DNA from: Candidatus Nanoarchaeia archaeon
Lineage (GTDB): Archaea; Nanobdellota; Nanobdellia; Woesearchaeales; GW2011-AR9
Assembly (NCBI GenBank): GCA_035289845.1
Contig: DATDWB010000028.1
Coordinates: 4,662-68,661 of the forward strand
Direction of reading: 5' to 3'
Length of the DNA stretch: 64,000 nucleotides
Part shown: piece after piece, positions 5,505 to 45,126 of the stretch
Layout of the letters: every line of letters starts with the position of its first letter
How positions within the stretch are numbered: the stretch's first letter is position 1
Program-made: the position numbers and the translations under genes
Notes under the pieces: model-generated
Seen by the model: the letters and a program-made list of their open reading frames with translations, nothing else
Told to the model about the DNA's origin: nothing
Database searches by the model: none

Positions 5505-6953
5505 ATGTCTTTATATTTATTCAATACTCTGACCAAAAAGAAAGAAAAATTTGTTCCGATATCCAAAAGCAAGGTAGGTCTTTACACCTGCGGCCCAACA
5601 GTTTATAATTCAGCCCATATCGGCAATCTAAGAGCTTACGTGTTTGAAGATGTCTTGAAAAGAACACTTTTTTTTAATGGATTTAAAGTTAAGCATGTCT
5701 TAAACATTACCGATGTTGGCCATTTAACTTCTGATGCTGATGAAGGTGAGGATAAGATGACCAAAGGGTTAAGGAGAGATGGCCTACCATTAACTTTAGC
5801 CGGCATGAAGAAGCTGGCCCAAAAATATACTAATTTGTTTGTTAAGGATATTAAACGACTTAATGTTATTTTGCCGGATGAAATGCCTAAAGCCAGTGAA
5901 AATATTGCAGAGGATATCGATCTGATTGAAAAATTAGATAAAAATGGATTTATCTACCAGATTGAGGATGGTGTTTATTTTGATACTTCCAAGCTGCCAG
6001 ATTATGGCCAGCTGGTAAATGGTAAAATAGATATAGATGAAGGACATCAAAGGATAAAGAAAGGCGGAAAAAAAAATAATAAGGACTTTGCCCTGTGGAA
6101 ATTCAATAATAAGCTGGGTTGGGATTCTAAATATGGTAAAGGTTTTCCCGGCTGGCATATAGAATGTTCAGCCATGGCCACTAAATATTTAGGTGAAAAA
6201 TTTGACATCCACTGCGGTGGTAAAGAACACATTGCAGTGCATCACACTAACGAAATTGCTCAATCAGAAGCGGCTTGGGGCAAGAAACCATGGGTTAAAT
6301 ATTGGCTGCATCATGAATGGTTAGAATTGGGTGGAAAAAAGATGGCCAAGTCTGGAGAAAATTTTATAACCCTATCACTTTTGGAAGAAAAATCATTTTC
6401 TCCATTGGATTTTCGATATTTGTGCTTAGGTACACATTACCGCAAACCGCTAATGTTTAACTATGGTGCTTTGGAAGGGGCAAGCCAAGCTAGAAAAAAA
6501 TTGGAAGAAAAAATGAAGGAATTTAAGTCTGAGTCCAAGATTATAGACTTAAAATCTAATTTATCCAATCCTAAAAAAATAAACAACCCGTTAATTAAAA
6601 AATATCAAGTTAAATTTTCAACTGAAGTTAATGATGACTTAAATACTCCGCAAGCCTTAGCTACCTTATGGGAGGTAATAAAGGACAAACAACTTAATGA
6701 GGGAAGTAAATATTATTTGCTTCTTCAATTTGATCGGATTTTTGGACTCAACTTAGGGCTGCTTAAAAAAGTGCAAAAGCAATTAAAAGTACCGCTTAAA
6801 GTAAAGCAGTTAGCGGAAGAGAGGTTGATTGCCCGCCAAAATAAAGATTGGAAAACAGCCGATAAAATCCGGCAGGAAGTAACTGATTTTGGCTATGTAG
6901 TTGAAGATACAAATGAGGGTTATAAATTCAAGAAGTTAGATGAAGTGAGCTAA
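5505..6953 (+). CDS. cysS: Cysteinyl-tRNA synthetase
   Basis: HIGH region CGPTVYNSAHIGNLR, KMSKS as KMAKSGENF, Zn-binding Cys residues. 482 aa. Confidence 0.92.
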   Translation: MSLYLFNTLTKKKEKFVPISKSKVGLYTCGPTVYNSAHIGNLRAYVFEDVLKRTLFFNGFKVKHVLNITDVGHLTSDADEGEDKMTKGLRRDGLPLTLAGMKKLAQKYTNLFVKDIKRLNVILPDEMPKASENIAEDIDLIEKLDKNGFIYQIEDGVYFDTSKLPDYGQLVNGKIDIDEGHQRIKKGGKKNNKDFALWKFNNKLGWDSKYGKGFPGWHIECSAMATKYLGEKFDIHCGGKEHIAVHHTNEIAQSEAAWGKKPWVKYWLHHEWLELGGKKMAKSGENFITLSLLEEKSFSPLDFRYLCLGTHYRKPLMFNYGALEGASQARKKLEEKMKEFKSESKIIDLKSNLSNPKKINNPLIKKYQVKFSTEVNDDLNTPQALATLWEVIKDKQLNEGSKYYLLLQFDRIFGLNLGLLKKVQKQLKVPLKVKQLAEERLIARQNKDWKTADKIRQEVTDFGYVVEDTNEGYKFKKLDEVS

Positions 6954-6996
6954 AGAGAAGTTTGCATAATTAAATTATTTATCCGCAAACTTCTCT
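6954..6996. repeat. Palindromic repeat element, copy A (12-bp perfect inverted repeat AGAGAAGTTTGC / GCAAACTTCTCT around a 19-nt loop)
   Basis: Identical 43-bp copies occur at 21109 (truncated) and 29513. Begins 1 nt after the cysS stop codon. Confidence 0.9.
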
Positions 6997-7026
6997 AAAC
7001 TAAGCTAAAAGTTTTTATAAATCCGG

Positions 7027-7260
7027 TTAAAAGTTATAATTAATGATTTTTTCTAGGTTATGTTTTGGAAAATTATTGGCGATGATATTAGGGACATATT
7101 TGTTAATATCAGACTCATAGCCTGCTTTATTCTCTAAAATGCTAGGAATTTTTGTCCCAGCACATCCTTTCCGGGAACAATCATAAACTAAAGAGGTTGA
7201 TCCTACAATTAATCCCAGCAATAAGATGCAGCCTTTAAGTCGAGTGGTATATTTGCTCAT
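7027..7260 (-). CDS. Small Cys-containing secreted/membrane-anchored hypothetical protein
   Basis: N-terminal hydrophobic segment CILLLGLIVGSTS. 77 aa with four Cys. Confidence 0.4.
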   Translation of the reverse strand: MSKYTTRLKGCILLLGLIVGSTSLVYDCSRKGCAGTKIPSILENKAGYESDINKYVPNIIANNFPKHNLEKIINYNF

Positions 7261-7326
7261 GGTAGTTAAAGTAGTTATTTATATTAATTATTTAAAAATG
7301 ATTGGCTTAAAACATAAGTATAACTA

Positions 7327-7590
7327 TTATTTACCTCCTGCTAGAGCTTGTTTAACAGCCTTAGGGTCATAACCTATGATTATGCTGCCACCGATGGTTA
7401 TAACTGGAACTCCGCTTTGGCCGGATAGGCGGATCATTTCATTACGAGCCTGGTCATTGGAAGTGACATCATATTCAGTATAATTAATTTTATTATCTTT
7501 AAGAAAATCTTTAGCTTTTTTACACCAGGGGCAAGACGGAGTGGTGTAAATTTTAACTTTAGGTTTAATCTTAGTTAGTGTTTTGGCCAA
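7327..7590 (-). CDS. Glutaredoxin/NrdH-like thioredoxin-fold protein
   Basis: CPWC active site (TTPSCPWCKKAKDFL), 87 aa. TTG start. Confidence 0.8.
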   Translation of the reverse strand: MAKTLTKIKPKVKIYTTPSCPWCKKAKDFLKDNKINYTEYDVTSNDQARNEMIRLSGQSGVPVITIGGSIIIGYDPKAVKQALAGGK

Positions 7591-7751
7591 ATCTAGGGTG
7601 GTTAGGAGTTATTACTTATATTATTTTCGGTTGGACAATCTAAGTAAAAAAATGGCGATTCGAATGCTTTTTAATAAGTTAATTTTAAATAGAATAAATG
7701 ATTATAAATAATAGTTAATAAATAATACTTAAACAAAAAGGTTAATTTAAA

Positions 7752-8582
7752 TTGAAAAATTCACGTAAAATAATCTCCTTAAAAGTAATTTTGGTGCTGT
7801 GTATACTTGGTTTTATAACTTCCTTATACTTGATATATAATCACTATTCCCTAGAATCGACAGCCTGTGATTTTGGAAATCTGGTTTCTTGTTCAATTGT
7901 TAACAGCAGTATATTCTCTGAACTGTTCAATGTTCCGGTAGCTTTATTTGGAGCATTGTGGTTTGTAGTGTTAGCAGTTATCACCTTCCAATCTTTTAAA
8001 AAAAAACATTATCTGGCGTATTCCTTGGTTTGGAATATAGTGGGAATACTATTCGTGTTCTATCTGGTGTGGGCGGAAACTTTCTTAGGAGCATTATGCC
8101 CTTACTGTACAGTTGTCCACATAATTATTACCCTCACTTTAATTCTGTCAATAATTCTATTTATGGCTGAGAAAGCGGCGCTGTCTTTCAAATTGTTAAG
8201 TTTAGGCAGAAGCTTTATTTTGGCAATTGTAGTGATTTATTTATTGGCCGTATTGTTGTTTAATATACCCTGGAGTGGAAAAAATAATTATGATCTCGAA
8301 GCTCAGTGTATAACTGAAAAAGGGGTTAACATGTACGGATCATTTCGCTGTGGTGTCTGCGCCAAAACCAGAGCTATGTTTGGCGATTCTTTCCAATATA
8401 TAAATGAAATAGAATGCCATCCCCAAGGAGAGAACTCACAAACTGAATTGTGTCTGCAGAAAGGCATAAAATTAACTCCAACCTGGATCCTTGAACCAAT
8501 GGGAGTGGAACAGAAAAGGCAGGAGGGTTTCAGGTCAGTAGATGAACTTAAAGTATTTGCTGGATGTGAAGTTGAGCCCTAA
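7752..8582 (+). CDS. Vitamin K epoxide reductase (VKOR)-family membrane protein fused to a C-terminal thioredoxin-like domain
   Basis: Five TM helices with a loop Cys pair (CDFGNLVSC) and a TM CxxC (CPYC). C-terminal CGVC thioredoxin-like domain. TTG start. Confidence 0.7.
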   Translation: MKNSRKIISLKVILVLCILGFITSLYLIYNHYSLESTACDFGNLVSCSIVNSSIFSELFNVPVALFGALWFVVLAVITFQSFKKKHYLAYSLVWNIVGILFVFYLVWAETFLGALCPYCTVVHIIITLTLILSIILFMAEKAALSFKLLSLGRSFILAIVVIYLLAVLLFNIPWSGKNNYDLEAQCITEKGVNMYGSFRCGVCAKTRAMFGDSFQYINEIECHPQGENSQTELCLQKGIKLTPTWILEPMGVEQKRQEGFRSVDELKVFAGCEVEP

Positions 8583-39774: not shown

Positions 39775-40560
39775 ATGATTATTCAAAAGGATTTCCTAAA
39801 CAAACTAAAAGACTTTGGACTAAATTCATACGAGAGTAAATTATGGATAGCTTTGCTATCCCGAGGAGTTTCTACGGCCGGCGAGTTATCGGACATTTCT
39901 AACGTGCCTCGAAGCCGGGCTTATGATGTTCTAGACTCATTGGAAAAAAAAGGGTTTATTATTGTTAAAGTTGGCAAACCAATCAAATATTTAGCGGTAT
40001 CTCCCGCTGAAGTAATTGAACGAGTTAAGAAAAAAGTAGTTCAAGAAGCCGAACAGCAGGACAAAATATTATCCCAACTTAAAGGCAGTGATATCCTGGA
40101 AGAATTAAGTGTACTGCACAATCAAGGAATAAAATTAATTGATCCAACTGACAGAAGCGGGGCTTTCCGAGGACGGGATAAGGTTCATGAACATCTGTTG
40201 ACTTTAATTAAAGGAGCCAAGAAAAGCATAACTTTAATGGTGTCTAAAGATGGTCTAGACCGGAAATACGATCTGTTAATAAACCATCTGCGCAAGGCAG
40301 CTAAAAATGGAGTGAACATTAAAATTTCTATTCCAGCTGGTGCAAATAAGGACAAAGTCAGCGACTTAAGTAAATTTGTTCAAGTTAAACAGGATAAGGA
40401 TATATCTACCCGCTTCTGCATTGTTGACAACAAAGAATTGTTGTTGTTTTTGACAGACGACGAAAAAGTGCACAAGAGTTACGATTGCGCAGTGTGGATT
40501 GATGCTCCGTATTTTGTTGAATATTTCAGCGCGCTGTTTGAGAGTGCGTGGAAGGAGTAG
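39775..40560 (+). CDS. TrmB-family transcriptional regulator
   Basis: N-terminal winged HTH YESKLWIALLSRGVSTAGELSDISNVPRSRAYDVLDSLEKKGFI plus the TrmB C-terminal domain. Confidence 0.8.
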   Translation: MIIQKDFLNKLKDFGLNSYESKLWIALLSRGVSTAGELSDISNVPRSRAYDVLDSLEKKGFIIVKVGKPIKYLAVSPAEVIERVKKKVVQEAEQQDKILSQLKGSDILEELSVLHNQGIKLIDPTDRSGAFRGRDKVHEHLLTLIKGAKKSITLMVSKDGLDRKYDLLINHLRKAAKNGVNIKISIPAGANKDKVSDLSKFVQVKQDKDISTRFCIVDNKELLLFLTDDEKVHKSYDCAVWIDAPYFVEYFSALFESAWKE

Positions 40561-40563
40561 ACA

Positions 40564-42012
40564 ATGAGCGAGGAGGTGGTATCTTTTCTGGACGAAGTAG
40601 AGCGGTTGGCTGCAGCTGCGTATGGTGTTGTGTTGGATTTGCGGTTAGGTTATGGTCGTGACGTTAAATTAGCTCGCAATAATTTAGAAGACTACTTAAC
40701 TCAGGAACGTAACTTTTCTGAACCCGATTCTGCTCTTGTTGTTTATATTTTACAAGATTATTTTACAGCGGAAAATTTGGCGAAGAAGGCAGATCTTTCC
40801 ACAGATAATAAGGATCCAATTGCTGATAATTCTTCGGTATTTCCATTTCAAGCAGATGCTTGGCGGAAAAAAGTGTATACTGCTCGAAAAAGACTCATAG
40901 ATATGAAGGTAGAAACTACATATCGTGCAGCGATGCACAACGCAGATATTGCCGCCAGCCGTTCTGTTGTCGGAGAATTATATGTCATCGAATTTAGAAC
41001 AGAAGGTATTGAAGACAGGCTTCATAATCCCTCCACTTCATCACCAGATGATTTTTTTTACAAGGAAGCTCATCTTAAAGAAAATCTTTATAAGGCGGCA
41101 GAACTCGAGCATCATGATCAACCCCTATTATTGTACAAAACTACTTTTCGTCACTTAGCTAAATCCCGCGGCTGGCATAAATTATCAGATGCCGACTTAG
41201 TTAGGGAATTAGATCACGCGCACGTTCCGCTGGAAGTTGCGAAAGGATGTTTGATGCGTAGGATTGAACGGCCGGCGGTTGGAGCAGGACTGGATATTAC
41301 TATTTCTGGAGATCAACAACATTCTATTCGTGTTACTTCGAACTTGGTGGACGTCGAAGGTAATCTACAATCAGCCTACGCTCAAATTCAGCCGGGCACG
41401 ATGTGTACTGCAGCGGAAATAACTAAAGAACGGCTGACAAACGAATCCCTGCGCCAGCGCGCCTATTATACTGCGAATGGAATAATTTATTGTATGCAGG
41501 ATGGCAAACCGGTGCTGTATATAACCCCCGAAAAAGGTAATTTAGTTTTACGGCATCTTGCTGATGCTCAGAATAGTTCTTATGATCAATTAGTTAATAA
41601 TCATAATTATCGTCCTTCGCTGGACGAAGTTAGTGAGGTAATCTCCCCCGGGCAAGGTGCGGAAAAATTTGATTTGTCGGACTTGGTATTAGCTGGCGGT
41701 AATGATGAATGGCAATATTTTACCATCGGTACGTCGCCTCGGGATTATAGTAAGTTGATTGGAATCGGGAAACGGTTAGCGGAACGAGTTTTTGGCAGCG
41801 GTCCAGATTTTACGGCGGCGATGCAGATGTTCGCTGATGCTGGGATTACAGCAACCAAAATAGGGGTCTTGAAACCGAGTTATGTTGCCAGCAATGCAGG
41901 CACTCCCCTCGGGCGGGCTTCGTGGCTGGATAGTTTCAGCTACAATTCCAGTTTCATTGCCGATGATCGTACTGTAGACATTCTTAACGCCCTGCGTGGG
42001 GTAGCGGGGTAG
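40564..42012 (+). CDS. DGR target (variable) protein, 482 aa, about 50% GC, with the variable repeat at its extreme C-terminus
   Basis: The last 33 codons align to the template repeat upstream of the RT. TR AAY codons are replaced by D/S/Y/I/T codons in this gene. No signal peptide, so likely intracellular. Confidence 0.75.
   Translation: MSEEVVSFLDEVERLAAAAYGVVLDLRLGYGRDVKLARNNLEDYLTQERNFSEPDSALVVYILQDYFTAENLAKKADLSTDNKDPIADNSSVFPFQADAWRKKVYTARKRLIDMKVETTYRAAMHNADIAASRSVVGELYVIEFRTEGIEDRLHNPSTSSPDDFFYKEAHLKENLYKAAELEHHDQPLLLYKTTFRHLAKSRGWHKLSDADLVRELDHAHVPLEVAKGCLMRRIERPAVGAGLDITISGDQQHSIRVTSNLVDVEGNLQSAYAQIQPGTMCTAAEITKERLTNESLRQRAYYTANGIIYCMQDGKPVLYITPEKGNLVLRHLADAQNSSYDQLVNNHNYRPSLDEVSEVISPGQGAEKFDLSDLVLAGGNDEWQYFTIGTSPRDYSKLIGIGKRLAERVFGSGPDFTAAMQMFADAGITATKIGVLKPSYVASNAGTPLGRASWLDSFSYNSSFIADDRTVDILNALRGVAG
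41911..42005 (+). repeat. DGR variable repeat (VR)
   Basis: About 95 nt align to 42342-42436 with roughly 70% identity. 14 of about 28 TR adenines are substituted versus 13 of about 68 non-A positions. Confidence 0.75.
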
Positions 42013-42058
42013 GCGAGCGTACGCGAGCAATCAGATACTCCTGGGCGCCGAAGGCGCC
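42001..42058 (+). promoter_or_regulatory. GC-rich IMH-like segment plus downstream hairpin (GGCGCC-GAA-GGCGCC, 42044-42058) at the VR 3' boundary
   Basis: GGGGTAGCGGGGTAGGCGAGCG followed by a 6-bp GC stem-loop, analogous to the DGR homing cis-elements. Confidence 0.5.
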
Positions 42059-42341
42059 ACTTTTCAGTAGTCAGTTTTTATCGTTGTATATTCAGCTATT
42101 TCAACCTCGAGGTTATAACACCACAATATTCTTAAAATAAATTTATTTTATTGTTAATCTCGGCATATTCCTCTCACAGAGGAAGCTGCTGGGCTACATG
42201 CCATTGGGCCATGGTCGAGGCGACTTGATTATGAAACCCTTATCTCGAACCAGTTCTGGGATGATAAAACAATCGTGACACGATGCTTAAGAGCATTATG
42301 ATTGAAACGGTGAAGAAAATAGAGGCTTGATGGCTACAGCA

Positions 42342-42440
42342 CGGGCGGGCGTCGTGGCTTAACAATTTCAATAACATTTCCTACTTCAATGCCAATGATC
42401 GCAATGTTAACAATCATAACCGCGTGCGTGGAATAATCCA
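42342..42440 (+). repeat. DGR template repeat (TR), extremely rich in AAC/AAT codons
   Basis: In the VR reading frame the TR reads RASWLNNFNNISYFNANDRNVNNHN. It ends about 20 nt before the RT start codon. Confidence 0.75.
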
Positions 42441-42462
42441 GCAGTTGTCCGAGGTTCTTTCT

Positions 42463-43615
42463 ATGAAACGACCTTCTAGAAATTTGTGGAATGAACTTTG
42501 CTCCTACCCCAACCTCGAACTTGCCTATAAGAAAGCGCGGAAAGGAAAAACAACACGCGACTACGTCCTTGAATTTGAGCACAATCTTCAAGACAATCTT
42601 TTGCAATTGCGCAGTGATTTGCTGTTTCATTCCTATCGGCCCAAACCACTGCAAACGTTCATTCTTCGTGATCCTAAAACGAGGAAAATTAGCAGGTCGG
42701 CTTTCCGAGATCGGATAGTACATCATGCGCTCTGTAACATTATTGAACAGTTCTTCGAACGAAGTTTTATCTTTGATTCGTACGCCAACCGGAAAGGCAA
42801 AGGCACACTGAAGGCAATAGAGCGTTTTGCACACTTCTCTCGGAAAGTAACTCATAATAACACCCAGCGGGCTTTTGTCTTGAAAGCGGATATAAAACAG
42901 TATTTTGAAAATGTGAATCATGCTCTTCTCCTGGGCATCATCCAGAAAAAAATAAGGGATCAGAAAATACTGTGGCTCATCAAAAAAATTCTTTCCAATT
43001 ATTCCGCCGCAGAAAAAAATGTTGGCATGCCTTTAGGAAATCTCACCTCCCAGTTCACGAGAAAAGACAACGATCTTTTCTGTGCCCTGATAAAGTCGTT
43101 GCTTTATCTTGGGTTTTGCTAATGTCTATCTGCACGAATTAGATCATTATGTCAAACAGCAGTTGAAAGCGAAATACTACGCGCGCTACGTGGACGATTT
43201 TGTGATTCTCGACCGTTCACGGTCAAAACTCGAGAAATACAAGACACACATCGTTTCTTTTCTCGCCACACGACTTGCCTTGCAGCTTCACCCCCAAAAG
43301 TCACGTATCATCAATCTTGAGAGGGGTACAGATTTTCTCGGGATGCGACATTTTCCTCATCATAAACTTATCAAAAAGAAAAATGTACGAAAATTTCGTA
43401 CTAAATTAAGTCTGCTTTCTCTTCGCTTTAAGCAGGGAGAATTATTATATGATAACCTCTACGATTTCATGGAAGGGTGGGTTGCGTATGCCAAGAATGC
43501 CGATACGTACCGATTACGGCAGGGCATTTTAACTGTGTTTGAACAGAATTATCGGCAGGAAATGGCGACTAAGGAGATTAATCGAGGTAAGAATTTTTTA
43601 ATGCCTGCCCTTTAA
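42463..43615 (+). CDS. DGR-type reverse transcriptase, reading frame interrupted by an insertion of about 58 nt between the PLGNLTSQF and FANVYLHELD motifs
   Basis: RT motifs are present: RPKPLQTFILRDPKTRKISR, VLKADIKQYFENVNH, GMPLGNLTSQF / FANVYL, YARYVDDFVIL. Two overlapping ORFs (to 43122; from 43109) reveal the frame break. Confidence 0.75.
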
Positions 43616-43656
43616 GAGAGAAATATTTAAATGGTATTAAGCTTATTGAAGGTATA

Positions 43657-44034
43657 ATGGCGAAAGAAGAAATAACCCTCTGGATTGAGCAGTCTTTTGA
43701 AGACTTCAAAGCGGCACAATATAATCTAAAAGGTAAACAGTTTCATGTGACAGCCCTTTTAGTCCAGCAGGCAGTGGAAAAGGGATTGAAAGCTCTCTTC
43801 ATTAAAAAATTTGGTGAAGTCCCAAAAGTACACGATTTAGTATTTCTGGCTAAGCGATTAGACCTTCCTGAGAAACTTCTTCACTATTGCAAGAAAATTT
43901 CTCCTTTCTATATTGAAACACGGTATCCTGATGCGAAAGGTTTTAGGAAAACAACTGATTTTACGCTTAACGAGTGTAAAGAAGCTCTTAATAATTGTGA
44001 GGAGATTCTGAGATGGATAAAGCTGAACATTTAG
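43657..44034 (+). CDS. HEPN domain protein (toxin-like partner of the MNT gene)
   Basis: HEPN helical pattern QQAVEKGLKALFIK ... ETRYPD. Overlaps the downstream MNT gene by 22 nt. Confidence 0.7.
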   Translation: MAKEEITLWIEQSFEDFKAAQYNLKGKQFHVTALLVQQAVEKGLKALFIKKFGEVPKVHDLVFLAKRLDLPEKLLHYCKKISPFYIETRYPDAKGFRKTTDFTLNECKEALNNCEEILRWIKLNI

Positions 44035-44330
44035 CCAAACAGCTGAAGGCTTTCAAGAAGGAGGTTTCAAAGAAAATACCTCTCAAAGCCCTGGTCTTTT
44101 TTGGCAGCCGAGCAAAAGGGAAGGGGAAAAAATATAGTGACATCGATTTGTTGGTCGTATCGTCAAAATTCAAGAACAAAAAATTTCACCAGCGCGCAAC
44201 GGCGTTATATGACTATTGGACTTTAGATTATCCGGTTGATTTTCTTTGCTATACACCGGAAGAATTCAATAAAAATAAAAAGATGATTGGCATTGTCCGC
44301 CGCGCAGTTGAAGAAGGAATAAAAATATGA
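44013..44330 (+). CDS. Minimal nucleotidyltransferase (MNT) domain protein
   Basis: GSRAKGKGKKYSDIDLLV (GS...DxD) nucleotidyltransferase signature. 105 aa. Confidence 0.75.
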   Translation: MDKAEHLAKQLKAFKKEVSKKIPLKALVFFGSRAKGKGKKYSDIDLLVVSSKFKNKKFHQRATALYDYWTLDYPVDFLCYTPEEFNKNKKMIGIVRRAVEEGIKI

Positions 44331-44334
44331 CTAC

Positions 44335-44694
44335 TTATCTCCATTGACATTCCTCAGCAACTAATTTTAAGAATTCTTTTAATCGTTCTATTTTTGGTTT
44401 CAATTTAATGGTTTCTTCCATCCCCAGCATTGTGTCTTGCTGAAGTTTCATAATGTGCTGGAAATAGTTAATATCAGAAGTGTAATGAAGAGCAACTCTG
44501 GCCAATTCTGCATACGGAAAAGGTTTTATGAGCGGTAAATGGGGTTCCCATTCGTGAAAATTATCTTTCAAGATTTGTCCCAATATTTCAGTTTGAGGGA
44601 AATAACCACCATTTTTCCCAGTTTGGAAATGGTGTACTTCCCAATAAGCATTGCGGGCGATACGCACTAAGTCCGGTGAAGTAATATCGTTCAT
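44335..44694 (-). CDS. Hypothetical protein, possibly DUF86/HepT-like HEPN (ARVALHY R-x3-H)
   Basis: 119 aa. Weak R..H motif. Convergent with the MNT gene. Confidence 0.3.
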   Translation of the reverse strand: MNDITSPDLVRIARNAYWEVHHFQTGKNGGYFPQTEILGQILKDNFHEWEPHLPLIKPFPYAELARVALHYTSDINYFQHIMKLQQDTMLGMEETIKLKPKIERLKEFLKLVAEECQWR

Positions 44695-44787
44695 TTTTTA
44701 ATCGCTGATGGAGGGGTATTTAATGATTATGAAATTTTAGCCAATGATAGGCATACCTTTTTAAATTTCTTCTTCTTTTCAAGAATT

Positions 44788-45126
44788 ATGAAACAGGTTC
44801 TAATTGTCCGTCAGGATCTAAATCTACCTAAAGGGAAGCTGGCGGCTCAGGCGGCACATGCTTCAGTGGAAGCAGTTCTTAAAACAGATTTGGCTATAGT
44901 CAAGAAGTGGCAGCGGGAAGGTATGGCTAAAATAGTTCTTAAAGTAAAAGATGAGAAAGAATTGGTGTATTATTTTCAGAAAGCCAAGGAAGCAGGATTG
45001 CCAGCAGCCTTGATTACAGATGCCGGCAGGACGGTTATCGCTCCTGGAACTAAGACTTGTGTCGGAATCGGGCCGGAAGAGGAAGAAGAGATCGATGCAA
45101 TAACCGGAAATTTGAAATTATTGTAA
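44788..45126 (+). CDS. pth2: Peptidyl-tRNA hydrolase, archaeal Pth2 type
   Basis: VLIVRQDLNLPKGKLAAQAAHAS...CVGIGP is the Pth2 signature. 112 aa. Confidence 0.9.
   Translation: MKQVLIVRQDLNLPKGKLAAQAAHASVEAVLKTDLAIVKKWQREGMAKIVLKVKDEKELVYYFQKAKEAGLPAALITDAGRTVIAPGTKTCVGIGPEEEEEIDAITGNLKLL

Follow-up and report, generated by a model that had tools for sequence, protein, structure and literature searches.

A nanoarchaeal diversity-generating retroelement with an interrupted reverse transcriptase and a variable region that matches the template repeat of a second element

According to our analysis, a 64,000-nucleotide stretch of contig DATDWB010000028.1 (assembly GCA_035289845.1, positions 4,662 to 68,661; hereafter the window) from a Candidatus Nanoarchaeia genome of aquifer origin carries, at 40564 to 43615, a diversity-generating retroelement (DGR) that is no longer autonomous. 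The element, here called DGR-A, consists of a target gene ending in a variable region (VR), a template repeat (TR-A), and a reverse transcriptase (RT-A), and it lacks two of the properties that define an autonomous DGR, since its reverse transcriptase (RT) is not intact and its adjacent template repeat (TR) and VR do not differ at adenines alone. RT-A is split by a 58-nt insertion, while the VR corresponds, with a single non-adenine mismatch, to TR-B, the template repeat of an intact second element (DGR-B) in the same metagenome-assembled genome (MAG). We consider it probable that RT-A was recently inactivated and that the most recent rewriting of the VR was done in trans by DGR-B from TR-B, which would make the gene a remote target standing beside a dead paralogous TR-RT pair. 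An initial annotation of this DNA had treated the adjacent TR and RT as a working cassette, a view that is abandoned here given the interrupted RT, a TR-A no closer to the VR than other TRs of the family, and the fit of TR-B. Coordinates below are those of the window and refer to the + strand unless stated otherwise.

The repeat itself was found essentially as first annotated, namely, as an ungapped direct repeat of 96 nt relating positions 41908-42003 to positions 42340-42435 at an offset of 432. The upstream copy makes up the final 32 codons of a 482-amino-acid (aa) open reading frame (ORF), the VR proper (41911..42003) occupying the last 31 of them, and ends with the initiation of mutagenic homing (IMH) sequence TGGGGT at 41997..42002, which was read from the sequence and is the same in all relatives, that is, in the related DGR loci among those fetched for comparison, all of which bear labels beginning with L. 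The downstream copy is intergenic; it contains TR-A (42343..42435), with the corresponding sequence IMH* TGGAAT at 42429-42434, and closely precedes the RT, as had been noted, with 28 nt separating its end from the likely ATG at 42463. Over the 96 nt we counted 26 mismatches, 14 at the 28 TR adenines (50%) and 12 at the 68 other bases (17.6%; Fisher p=0.002), in good agreement with the approximately 50% and 19% given initially, and the adenine enrichment relative to TR-A gave p=0.002-0.005 across computations. Two of the 14 adenine mismatches represent the fixed difference between IMH and IMH* (TGGGGT versus TGGAAT), and one more lies at the edge of the homology. When the alignment is restricted to its positions 4-96 (93 nt), there are 13 adenine mismatches and 12 mismatches among the 66 non-adenine positions. 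Read in frame, TR-A gives ...RASWLNNFNNISYFNANDRNVNNHN..., and the majority of its AAC or AAT (AAY) codons are altered in the VR, which bears out the codon replacements described in the initial annotation. A second VR matching TR-A was not found within the window.

Comparison with other members of the family places this enrichment in a different light. In six intact relatives (L004, L012, L020, L021, L023, and L024), VR and TR differ at 11-17 adenines and at no other base, whereas the window VR and TR-A, over the same 93 positions, show 13 adenine and 12 non-adenine mismatches, which is outside the range of the intact relatives and also outside the published criterion for nanoarchaeal DGRs, which allows up to 2 VR/TR mismatches at bases other than adenine per 100 bp (PMC4372165). 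Furthermore, the window VR has 13-15 non-adenine mismatches to the TRs of unrelated family members and 12 to its own TR-A, which is thus no closer to it than they are. Against TR-B (L020 3525-3617), instead, the window VR is mismatched at 13 of 30 adenines and at 1 of 63 other bases (p=5e-7), and the codons changed between the two are all AAY or CAT, so that the adenine-only pattern missing from the adjacent pair is found with a template of the same MAG. The window VR and the VR of DGR-B itself depart from TR-B at different adenines, and they are therefore independent mutagenised copies of TR-B rather than copies of each other.

The non-adenine disagreements between the VR and TR-A fall into two groups. 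In the first, TR-A shows states of its own: two AAY codons have been lost, now reading ATT and TAC, at sites where all other TRs of the family keep AAY. In the second, the VR and TR-B have in common a family variant, GCC CTG, where TR-A reads CGC GTG. TR-A contains 27 adenines compared with 30-35 in the TRs of relatives, and its bases at 42377, 42382, and 42402 were seen in no other examined TR or VR of the family. As judged from these spectra, the window VR does not descend from the adjacent TR-A, and the enrichment at TR-A adenines is accounted for by the fact that TR-A and TR-B have most of their AAY codons in common. Neutral decay in situ was rejected as the origin of the 12 non-adenine mismatches because the two halves of the RT are undecayed and TR-B explains the VR.

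RT-A was initially annotated as a single gene, which we found to consist of two ORFs in different frames, 42424-43122 (232 aa) and 43109-43615 (168 aa). The 5' part (42463..43056), aligned with 15 homologues, covers positions 8-125 of Pfam RVT_1 and ends in ...GMPLGNLTSQF; the 3' part (43115..43615) starts with FANVYLHELD..., includes the YVDD motif, and covers RVT_1 positions 131-204. Between them lies the 58-nt insertion (43057..43114, with boundaries ambiguous by 1 nt), which causes a +1 frameshift and falls between the adjoining phenylalanines of NLTSQF|FANVYL, an invariant motif. The aligned homologues all read GMPLGNLTSQFFANVYLNELD without a gap, while in the window NLTSQF is followed by the 58 nt and then by FANVYLHELD in the +1 frame. 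Removal of 43057-43114 restores NLTSQFFANVYL, which is invariant across the aligned homologues, and the RT so restored is referred to as the repaired RT and was used for homology searches. The insertion is present in every assembly covering the site (four or five independent ones, all from one population, among them L001, L002, and L019), and it is for this reason regarded as genuine.

With the insertion removed, RT-A departs from the family at one of 78 alignment columns (those with conservation of 98% or more in a set of 120 homologues), a number also typical of intact homologues, and the lesion is accordingly dated as recent from the undecayed state of the remainder of the gene. The frameshifting insertion is observed directly and should abolish the polymerase activity of RT-A. 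As to where the insert came from, positions 43058-43074 resemble the reverse complement of RT positions 43250-43265, 190 nt downstream, at 16 of 17 bases with one indel, a likeness reached by 2 of 500 shuffles, which hints at a replication error by template switching. A mobile element, such as a miniature inverted-repeat transposable element, was considered and rejected: no second copy of the insert occurs in the window, even when 3 mismatches or shared 11-mers are allowed, or in the fetched loci, and a 27-mer from it matched, in 241 million JGI metagenome records, at this locus only, although diverged copies may exist.

DGR-B (locus L020) is intact, with a 283-aa target, an RT-11 RNA motif, a TR, and an uninterrupted RT containing SQFFANVYL and YVDD. 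Its target and RT are HLD00811.1 (VJC39_03640) and HLD00812.1, with VJC39_03655 as downstream neighbour, while the target in the window is HLD00720.1 (VJC39_03160), whose neighbours are HLD00712 to HLD00730. The VJC39 prefix common to both loci places them in one NCBI assembly, that is, in one MAG, with DGR-B on another contig. The tetranucleotide correlation between the window and L020 (0.973) is the highest among all compared loci, and assembly ERZ4903055 contains both. Between DGR-A and DGR-B, identity amounts to 61% for the RTs and 37% for the target scaffolds, and the ends of their VRs and their cis elements are nearly the same; the two elements are distant paralogues.

By descent, the locus is securely a DGR of the nanoarchaeal type, a kind already known. 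The best solved relative of the repaired RT is the RT of Bordetella phage BPP-1 (bRT, 8ub7_A; E=1.4e-49), group II intron RTs following at 6e-25 or weaker, and the RT scores far under the cut-offs of the NCBIfam group II and retron models; the assignment to the DGR class made in the initial annotation is hence confirmed, the host being a DPANN archaeon. Its remark that DGRs are rare in archaea is an understatement, given that the repaired RT has more than 7,000 homologues at E<=1e-10 and that the best 120, which are 59-66% identical, belong where named to Nanoarchaeota, Woesearchaeota, or an archaeon. Six RT homologues come with TR/VR pairs mismatched at adenines only. Nanoarchaeota DGRs have been described with the IMH/IMH* pair TGGGGT/TGGAAT and a hairpin with a GRA trinucleotide loop (PMC4372165). 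Both members of the pair are present in the window, together with a hairpin 3' of the VR that was read from the sequence as GGCGCC-GAA-GGCGCC (42044..42058; 6-bp stem, GRA trinucleotide loop), and all three elements recur in all fetched relatives, the VR of each being followed by an equivalent hairpin with a GAA, GCA, or GTA loop. The order of the elements is target with VR, IMH, GAA-loop hairpin, RT-11 RNA, TR with IMH*, and RT. As regards avd, we detected no + strand ORF of at least 40 aa between target and RT, nor any called gene in that interval in the intact loci L004, L020, L021, and L023.

The RT-11 RNA motif (RF03106) was detected by cmscan as a divergent copy at 42165..42315, between the hairpin and the TR and 24 nt upstream of the latter. 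It scores 69 bits (E=8.5e-14; gathering score, 143.5), extends over the full length of the model, and can form nearly all of its stems. Seven related loci have the motif as well, at a distance of 24-58 nt upstream of the TR, namely, L004 (5858-6000), L012 (3697-3829), L015 (267-460), L020 (3341-3496), L021 (3370-3514), L023 (3341-3496), and L026; among these seven, the homologously placed copy in L021, with 158.7 bits, is the only one passing the gathering score. To our knowledge, RT-11 was published without an assigned function. Because its position 24-58 nt upstream of the TR is constant in this family of DPANN DGRs, RT-11 probably makes up the structured 5' portion of their template RNA.

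The target gene (40564..42012) encodes 482 aa, with an all-helical N-terminal domain (approximately residues 1-240, up to about 260) and a C-terminal domain (approximately residues 260-482) that is AvpA-like, has the C-type lectin fold expected of a variable protein, and carries the VR, in line with the fold suggested in the initial annotation. The N-terminal domain has 13 distant homologues and gave no Pfam, PADLOC, or fold match and no family assignment. As had also been stated, the protein has no signal peptide: neither a signal-peptide-like nor a transmembrane stretch was found (Kyte-Doolittle maximum, 1.11; net charge of the first 12 residues, -4). The reading frame ends in an in-frame TAG (42010..42012) two codons past the VR, while in our alignment the relatives extend about 50-90 residues beyond it, and AvpA has a tail of 46 residues past its VR (PMC5006420). 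Past the TAG, the frame stays open for 41 more codons (to approximately 42138), is weakly similar to the tails of relatives, and at the DNA level resembles the tail of L007. TAG serves as an ordinary stop elsewhere in the window, and the one ending the target looks like a recent nonsense mutation, by which the hairpin would have been left in the 3' untranslated region. Compared with window positions 41330-41950, the protein P0135 (SRR3989338) has a short unrelated N-terminus in place of the 260-aa N-terminal domain and is identical to the target from residue 326 on, the first VR codons included, except for P414Q. Likewise, upstream of nucleotide 2470, L026 has a His_biosynth gene where L020 has a TrmB-like gene before the DGR-B target. 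From these strain variants, whose upstream parts differ, recombination break-points are concluded to adjoin both target genes.

In the history which we propose, the 58-nt insertion would have knocked out RT-A recently. DGR-B would transcribe an RNA comprising RT-11 and TR-B, from which the DGR-B RT would make TR-B cDNA, primed and adenine-mutagenised in the usual DGR manner. This cDNA would enter the window VR by means of the shared 5' homology (GGGCGGGCTTCGTGGCTG), the shared 3' end with the IMH (GCCCTGCGTGGGGTA), and the hairpin. A single TR-B retrohoming event may exchange the entire VR; no long period of decay is then needed, and the 12 non-adenine mismatches to TR-A can be reconciled with an undecayed RT-A. 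What we observed is that RT-A is interrupted, that the VR has different mismatch spectra against TR-A and TR-B, and that both loci fall in one MAG; remote writing, as opposed to writing from a local B-like TR that has vanished, would be the most likely origin of the present VR.

Several points weigh against this history. The recognition of the window target by DGR-B is plausible from the sequence elements involved, and yet the hairpin lies 41 nt past the VR in the window, compared with about 13 nt in the DGR-B target, and the scaffolds, as said, are 37% identical. The assignment of both loci to one genome relies on MAG binning, composition, and co-occurrence rather than on a closed chromosome. 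Variation of the VR in the population was not seen, the VR being identical in all assemblies of the population, which are consensus sequences; the VR of DGR-B is likewise identical across consensus assemblies, and since the VR of an intact DGR is equally invariant, this invariance says little either way. The same imprint would result from a former local B-like TR that the present TR-RT module later displaced, and excision of the insertion from the RNA would likewise leave RT-A undecayed.

The first of these two scenarios is that of a fossil locus, in which a B-like TR once stood here and wrote the VR long ago, the present TR-RT, together with its RT-11 RNA, then replaced it by recombination and was in turn inactivated, and no diversification takes place now. 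It would fit the separate evolutionary histories of nanoarchaeal DGR components and the partial or fossil DGRs that have been reported (PMC4372165), the recombination break-points adjoining both targets (P0135; L026 versus L020), the cost of the in-frame TAG to the target, which lost its C-terminal tail, and a VR unvarying across assemblies. A vanished TR is, however, not needed when a matching one is present in the same MAG, the single non-adenine difference between the VR and TR-B argues for a recent write, and the IMH and hairpin are intact. We deem this scenario unlikely.

In the second scenario, the 58-nt insert is not a lesion: either it is an archaeal intron of a non-canonical type that is excised from the mRNA, or the ribosome bypasses it, and RT-A is still made and functional. 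Its length (58 = 3n+1) and its position restore the invariant motif exactly, the undecayed state of the RT halves would be explained, and the insert can form two stable local hairpins, AGAAAAGA-CAACGA-TCTTTTCT (43060-43081) and GATAAAG-TCGTTG-CTTTATC (43089-43108), whose six-base loops are mutually complementary. The fold of the region is nevertheless unexceptional (z = -1.23). An archaeal intron with a bulge-helix-bulge (BHB) motif, defined as two 3-nt bulges that hold the splice sites, a 4-bp helix between them, and flanking helices, was rejected, since no credible motif emerged either on inspection by hand or when a script went through 756 splice registers: the two registers restoring SQFFAN form 2 to 3 of 4 central pairs and 1 of 4 outer pairs, and the sole candidate of the scan consists of three G.U pairs and one G-C pair, has no outer helix, and changes the invariant F to T. 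Known bypass sites have matched take-off and landing codons followed by a stop. The insert has none of these, and read-through would add 19 residues within the catalytic motif, so that ribosomal bypass or +1 frameshifting was also rejected on sequence grounds. The failure to find a second copy or a homologous insert (in the window, the fetched loci, and the JGI search with the 27-mer), the inverted likeness to RT 43250-43265, which suggests a replication error, and a VR without the imprint of TR-A also speak against a functional RT-A. We regard this scenario as very improbable; if true, the excised or bypassed element would be a novel type of small intervening sequence within a protein-coding gene of an archaeon. 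Equally hard to sustain is the reading of the locus as an independent, active cassette whose own RT would copy the neighbouring TR into the VR, because the adenine enrichment relative to TR-A, the full set of cis elements in canonical order, and RT halves intact apart from the insertion are outweighed by a frameshift in an invariant RT motif, by 12 non-adenine mismatches compared with none in six intact relatives, and by a VR far better explained by TR-B, whose AAY codons in common with TR-A give rise to that enrichment.

The genes flanking the locus encode components of the exosome, the proteasome alpha subunit, RpoK, L44e, S27e, eIF2-alpha, Nop10, and Pth2, which, together with the NCBI name of the identical protein HLD00720.1 (Candidatus Nanoarchaeia archaeon), identify the host as a DPANN archaeon. 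Target, TR, and RT form a block (40564-44694) with a HEPN/nucleotidyltransferase pair and one unknown ORF, and this block lies between genes for TrmB and Pth2. The HEPN gene (43657-44034) is directly downstream of the broken RT and overlaps by 22 nt the gene for a minimal nucleotidyltransferase (MNT; 44013-44330), which matches the PADLOC candidate families PDC-S09 and PDC-M05A; the two are a typical toxin-antitoxin pair, and they are followed on the - strand by the unknown ORF of 119 aa (44335-44694). In the Woesearchaeota locus L028, which conserves the cluster from the OB-fold/Rpp14 genes through Pth2, the slot between TrmB and Pth2 holds two unrelated small ORFs (5991-8348) and no DGR; the interval holds five ORFs in L027 (3677-8348) and the DGR and toxin-antitoxin block in the window (39775-45126), and it is thus variable. 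From the synteny with L028, the block is an insertion in a variable slot, which supports acquisition better than the difference in GC content does. The initial annotation had argued for lateral acquisition from a cassette of about 50% GC in a genome of about 33% GC; we measured 43.1% and, for the rest of the window, 37.1%, so that the argument rested on wrong numbers, while the acquisition itself is favoured by the slot.

A TrmB-like helix-turn-helix gene precedes the target in L020 (1606-2292), in the DGR of L023/L024 (L023 1362-2108), and in the window (39775-40560), the three being 24-34% identical to each other. This recurrence may be a coincidence, since the window copy is a conserved syntenic gene, and a role as DGR accessory was rejected because the syntenic TrmB of L028, 73% identical to that of the window, occurs in a locus without a DGR. 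The 502-aa ORF found in the same slot of L027 was considered as a homologue of the target and discarded for want of any similarity. The JGI contig L019, which covers the RT, agrees fully with the window as far as 44716 and is out of register from 44717 on, which points to an intergenic indel before Pth2 as a population variant. Finally, L005 (5571-5663) and L007 (5571-5663) contain AvpA-like genes with VRs that look adenine-mutagenised, an IMH, and a hairpin, with no RT within 5 kb; these genes are orphan or remote targets. L007 and L009 share their metagenome assemblies of origin with the window. TR-A matches neither the L005 nor the L007 VR (20 and 15 non-adenine mismatches, respectively).

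The closest described systems are the DUSEL4 Nanoarchaeota DGRs and AvpA (PMC4372165; PMC5006420; PDB 5IOO), which resemble DGR-A in the TGGGGT/TGGAAT pair, the GRA-loop hairpin, the lack of an obvious avd, and an RT of the DGR clade. In DUSEL4, too, there are several DGRs per genome along with partial DGRs, which have been discussed as "fossils or diversified remotely" (PMC4372165). The window target is only 13% identical to AvpA and has an additional helical N-terminal domain of 260 residues, its ORF stops two codons past the VR so that the hairpin falls outside the coding region, and its resident RT is interrupted; moreover, a specific remote TR can be named for its VR, a matter left open for the partial DGRs of DUSEL4. 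The BPP-1 DGR (bRT-Avd, Mtd; PDB 8UB7) has an RT homologous over the full length (with the E value given above), including SQxFANxY and YxDD, and is alike in its adenine-specific transfer from TR to VR, in the hairpin downstream of the VR, and in a variable protein of the C-type lectin fold. It differs in having Avd, which DGR-A lacks, in residing in a phage rather than in the chromosome of an archaeon, and in the position of its RNA motif, RT-10, between TR and RT (PMC5737381), whereas RT-11 in the window lies 5' of the TR. In multi-target DGRs such as that of Treponema denticola (cited in PMC5758913), one TR-RT serves distant VRs that have common ends and cis elements; here, the proposed remote target adjoins its own broken paralogous TR-RT, and its scaffold is only 37% identical to the target of the donor.

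DGRs of DPANN archaea are well documented, and the class is not new. The value of this locus is in a combination of features: the variable-protein gene stands next to an RT that was broken recently and to a template not cognate to it, and it nevertheless bears a clean imprint, at adenines only, of another DGR in the same genome. In practical terms, the wrong template may be chosen when a scan matches a VR to the TR closest by. The case bears on the question raised by Paul et al. in 2015 of whether partial nanoarchaeal DGRs are fossils or remote targets (PMC4372165), as the donor TR can here be named, and it suggests that paralogous DGRs sharing a cell can act on one another's targets and in this way buffer the loss of an RT.

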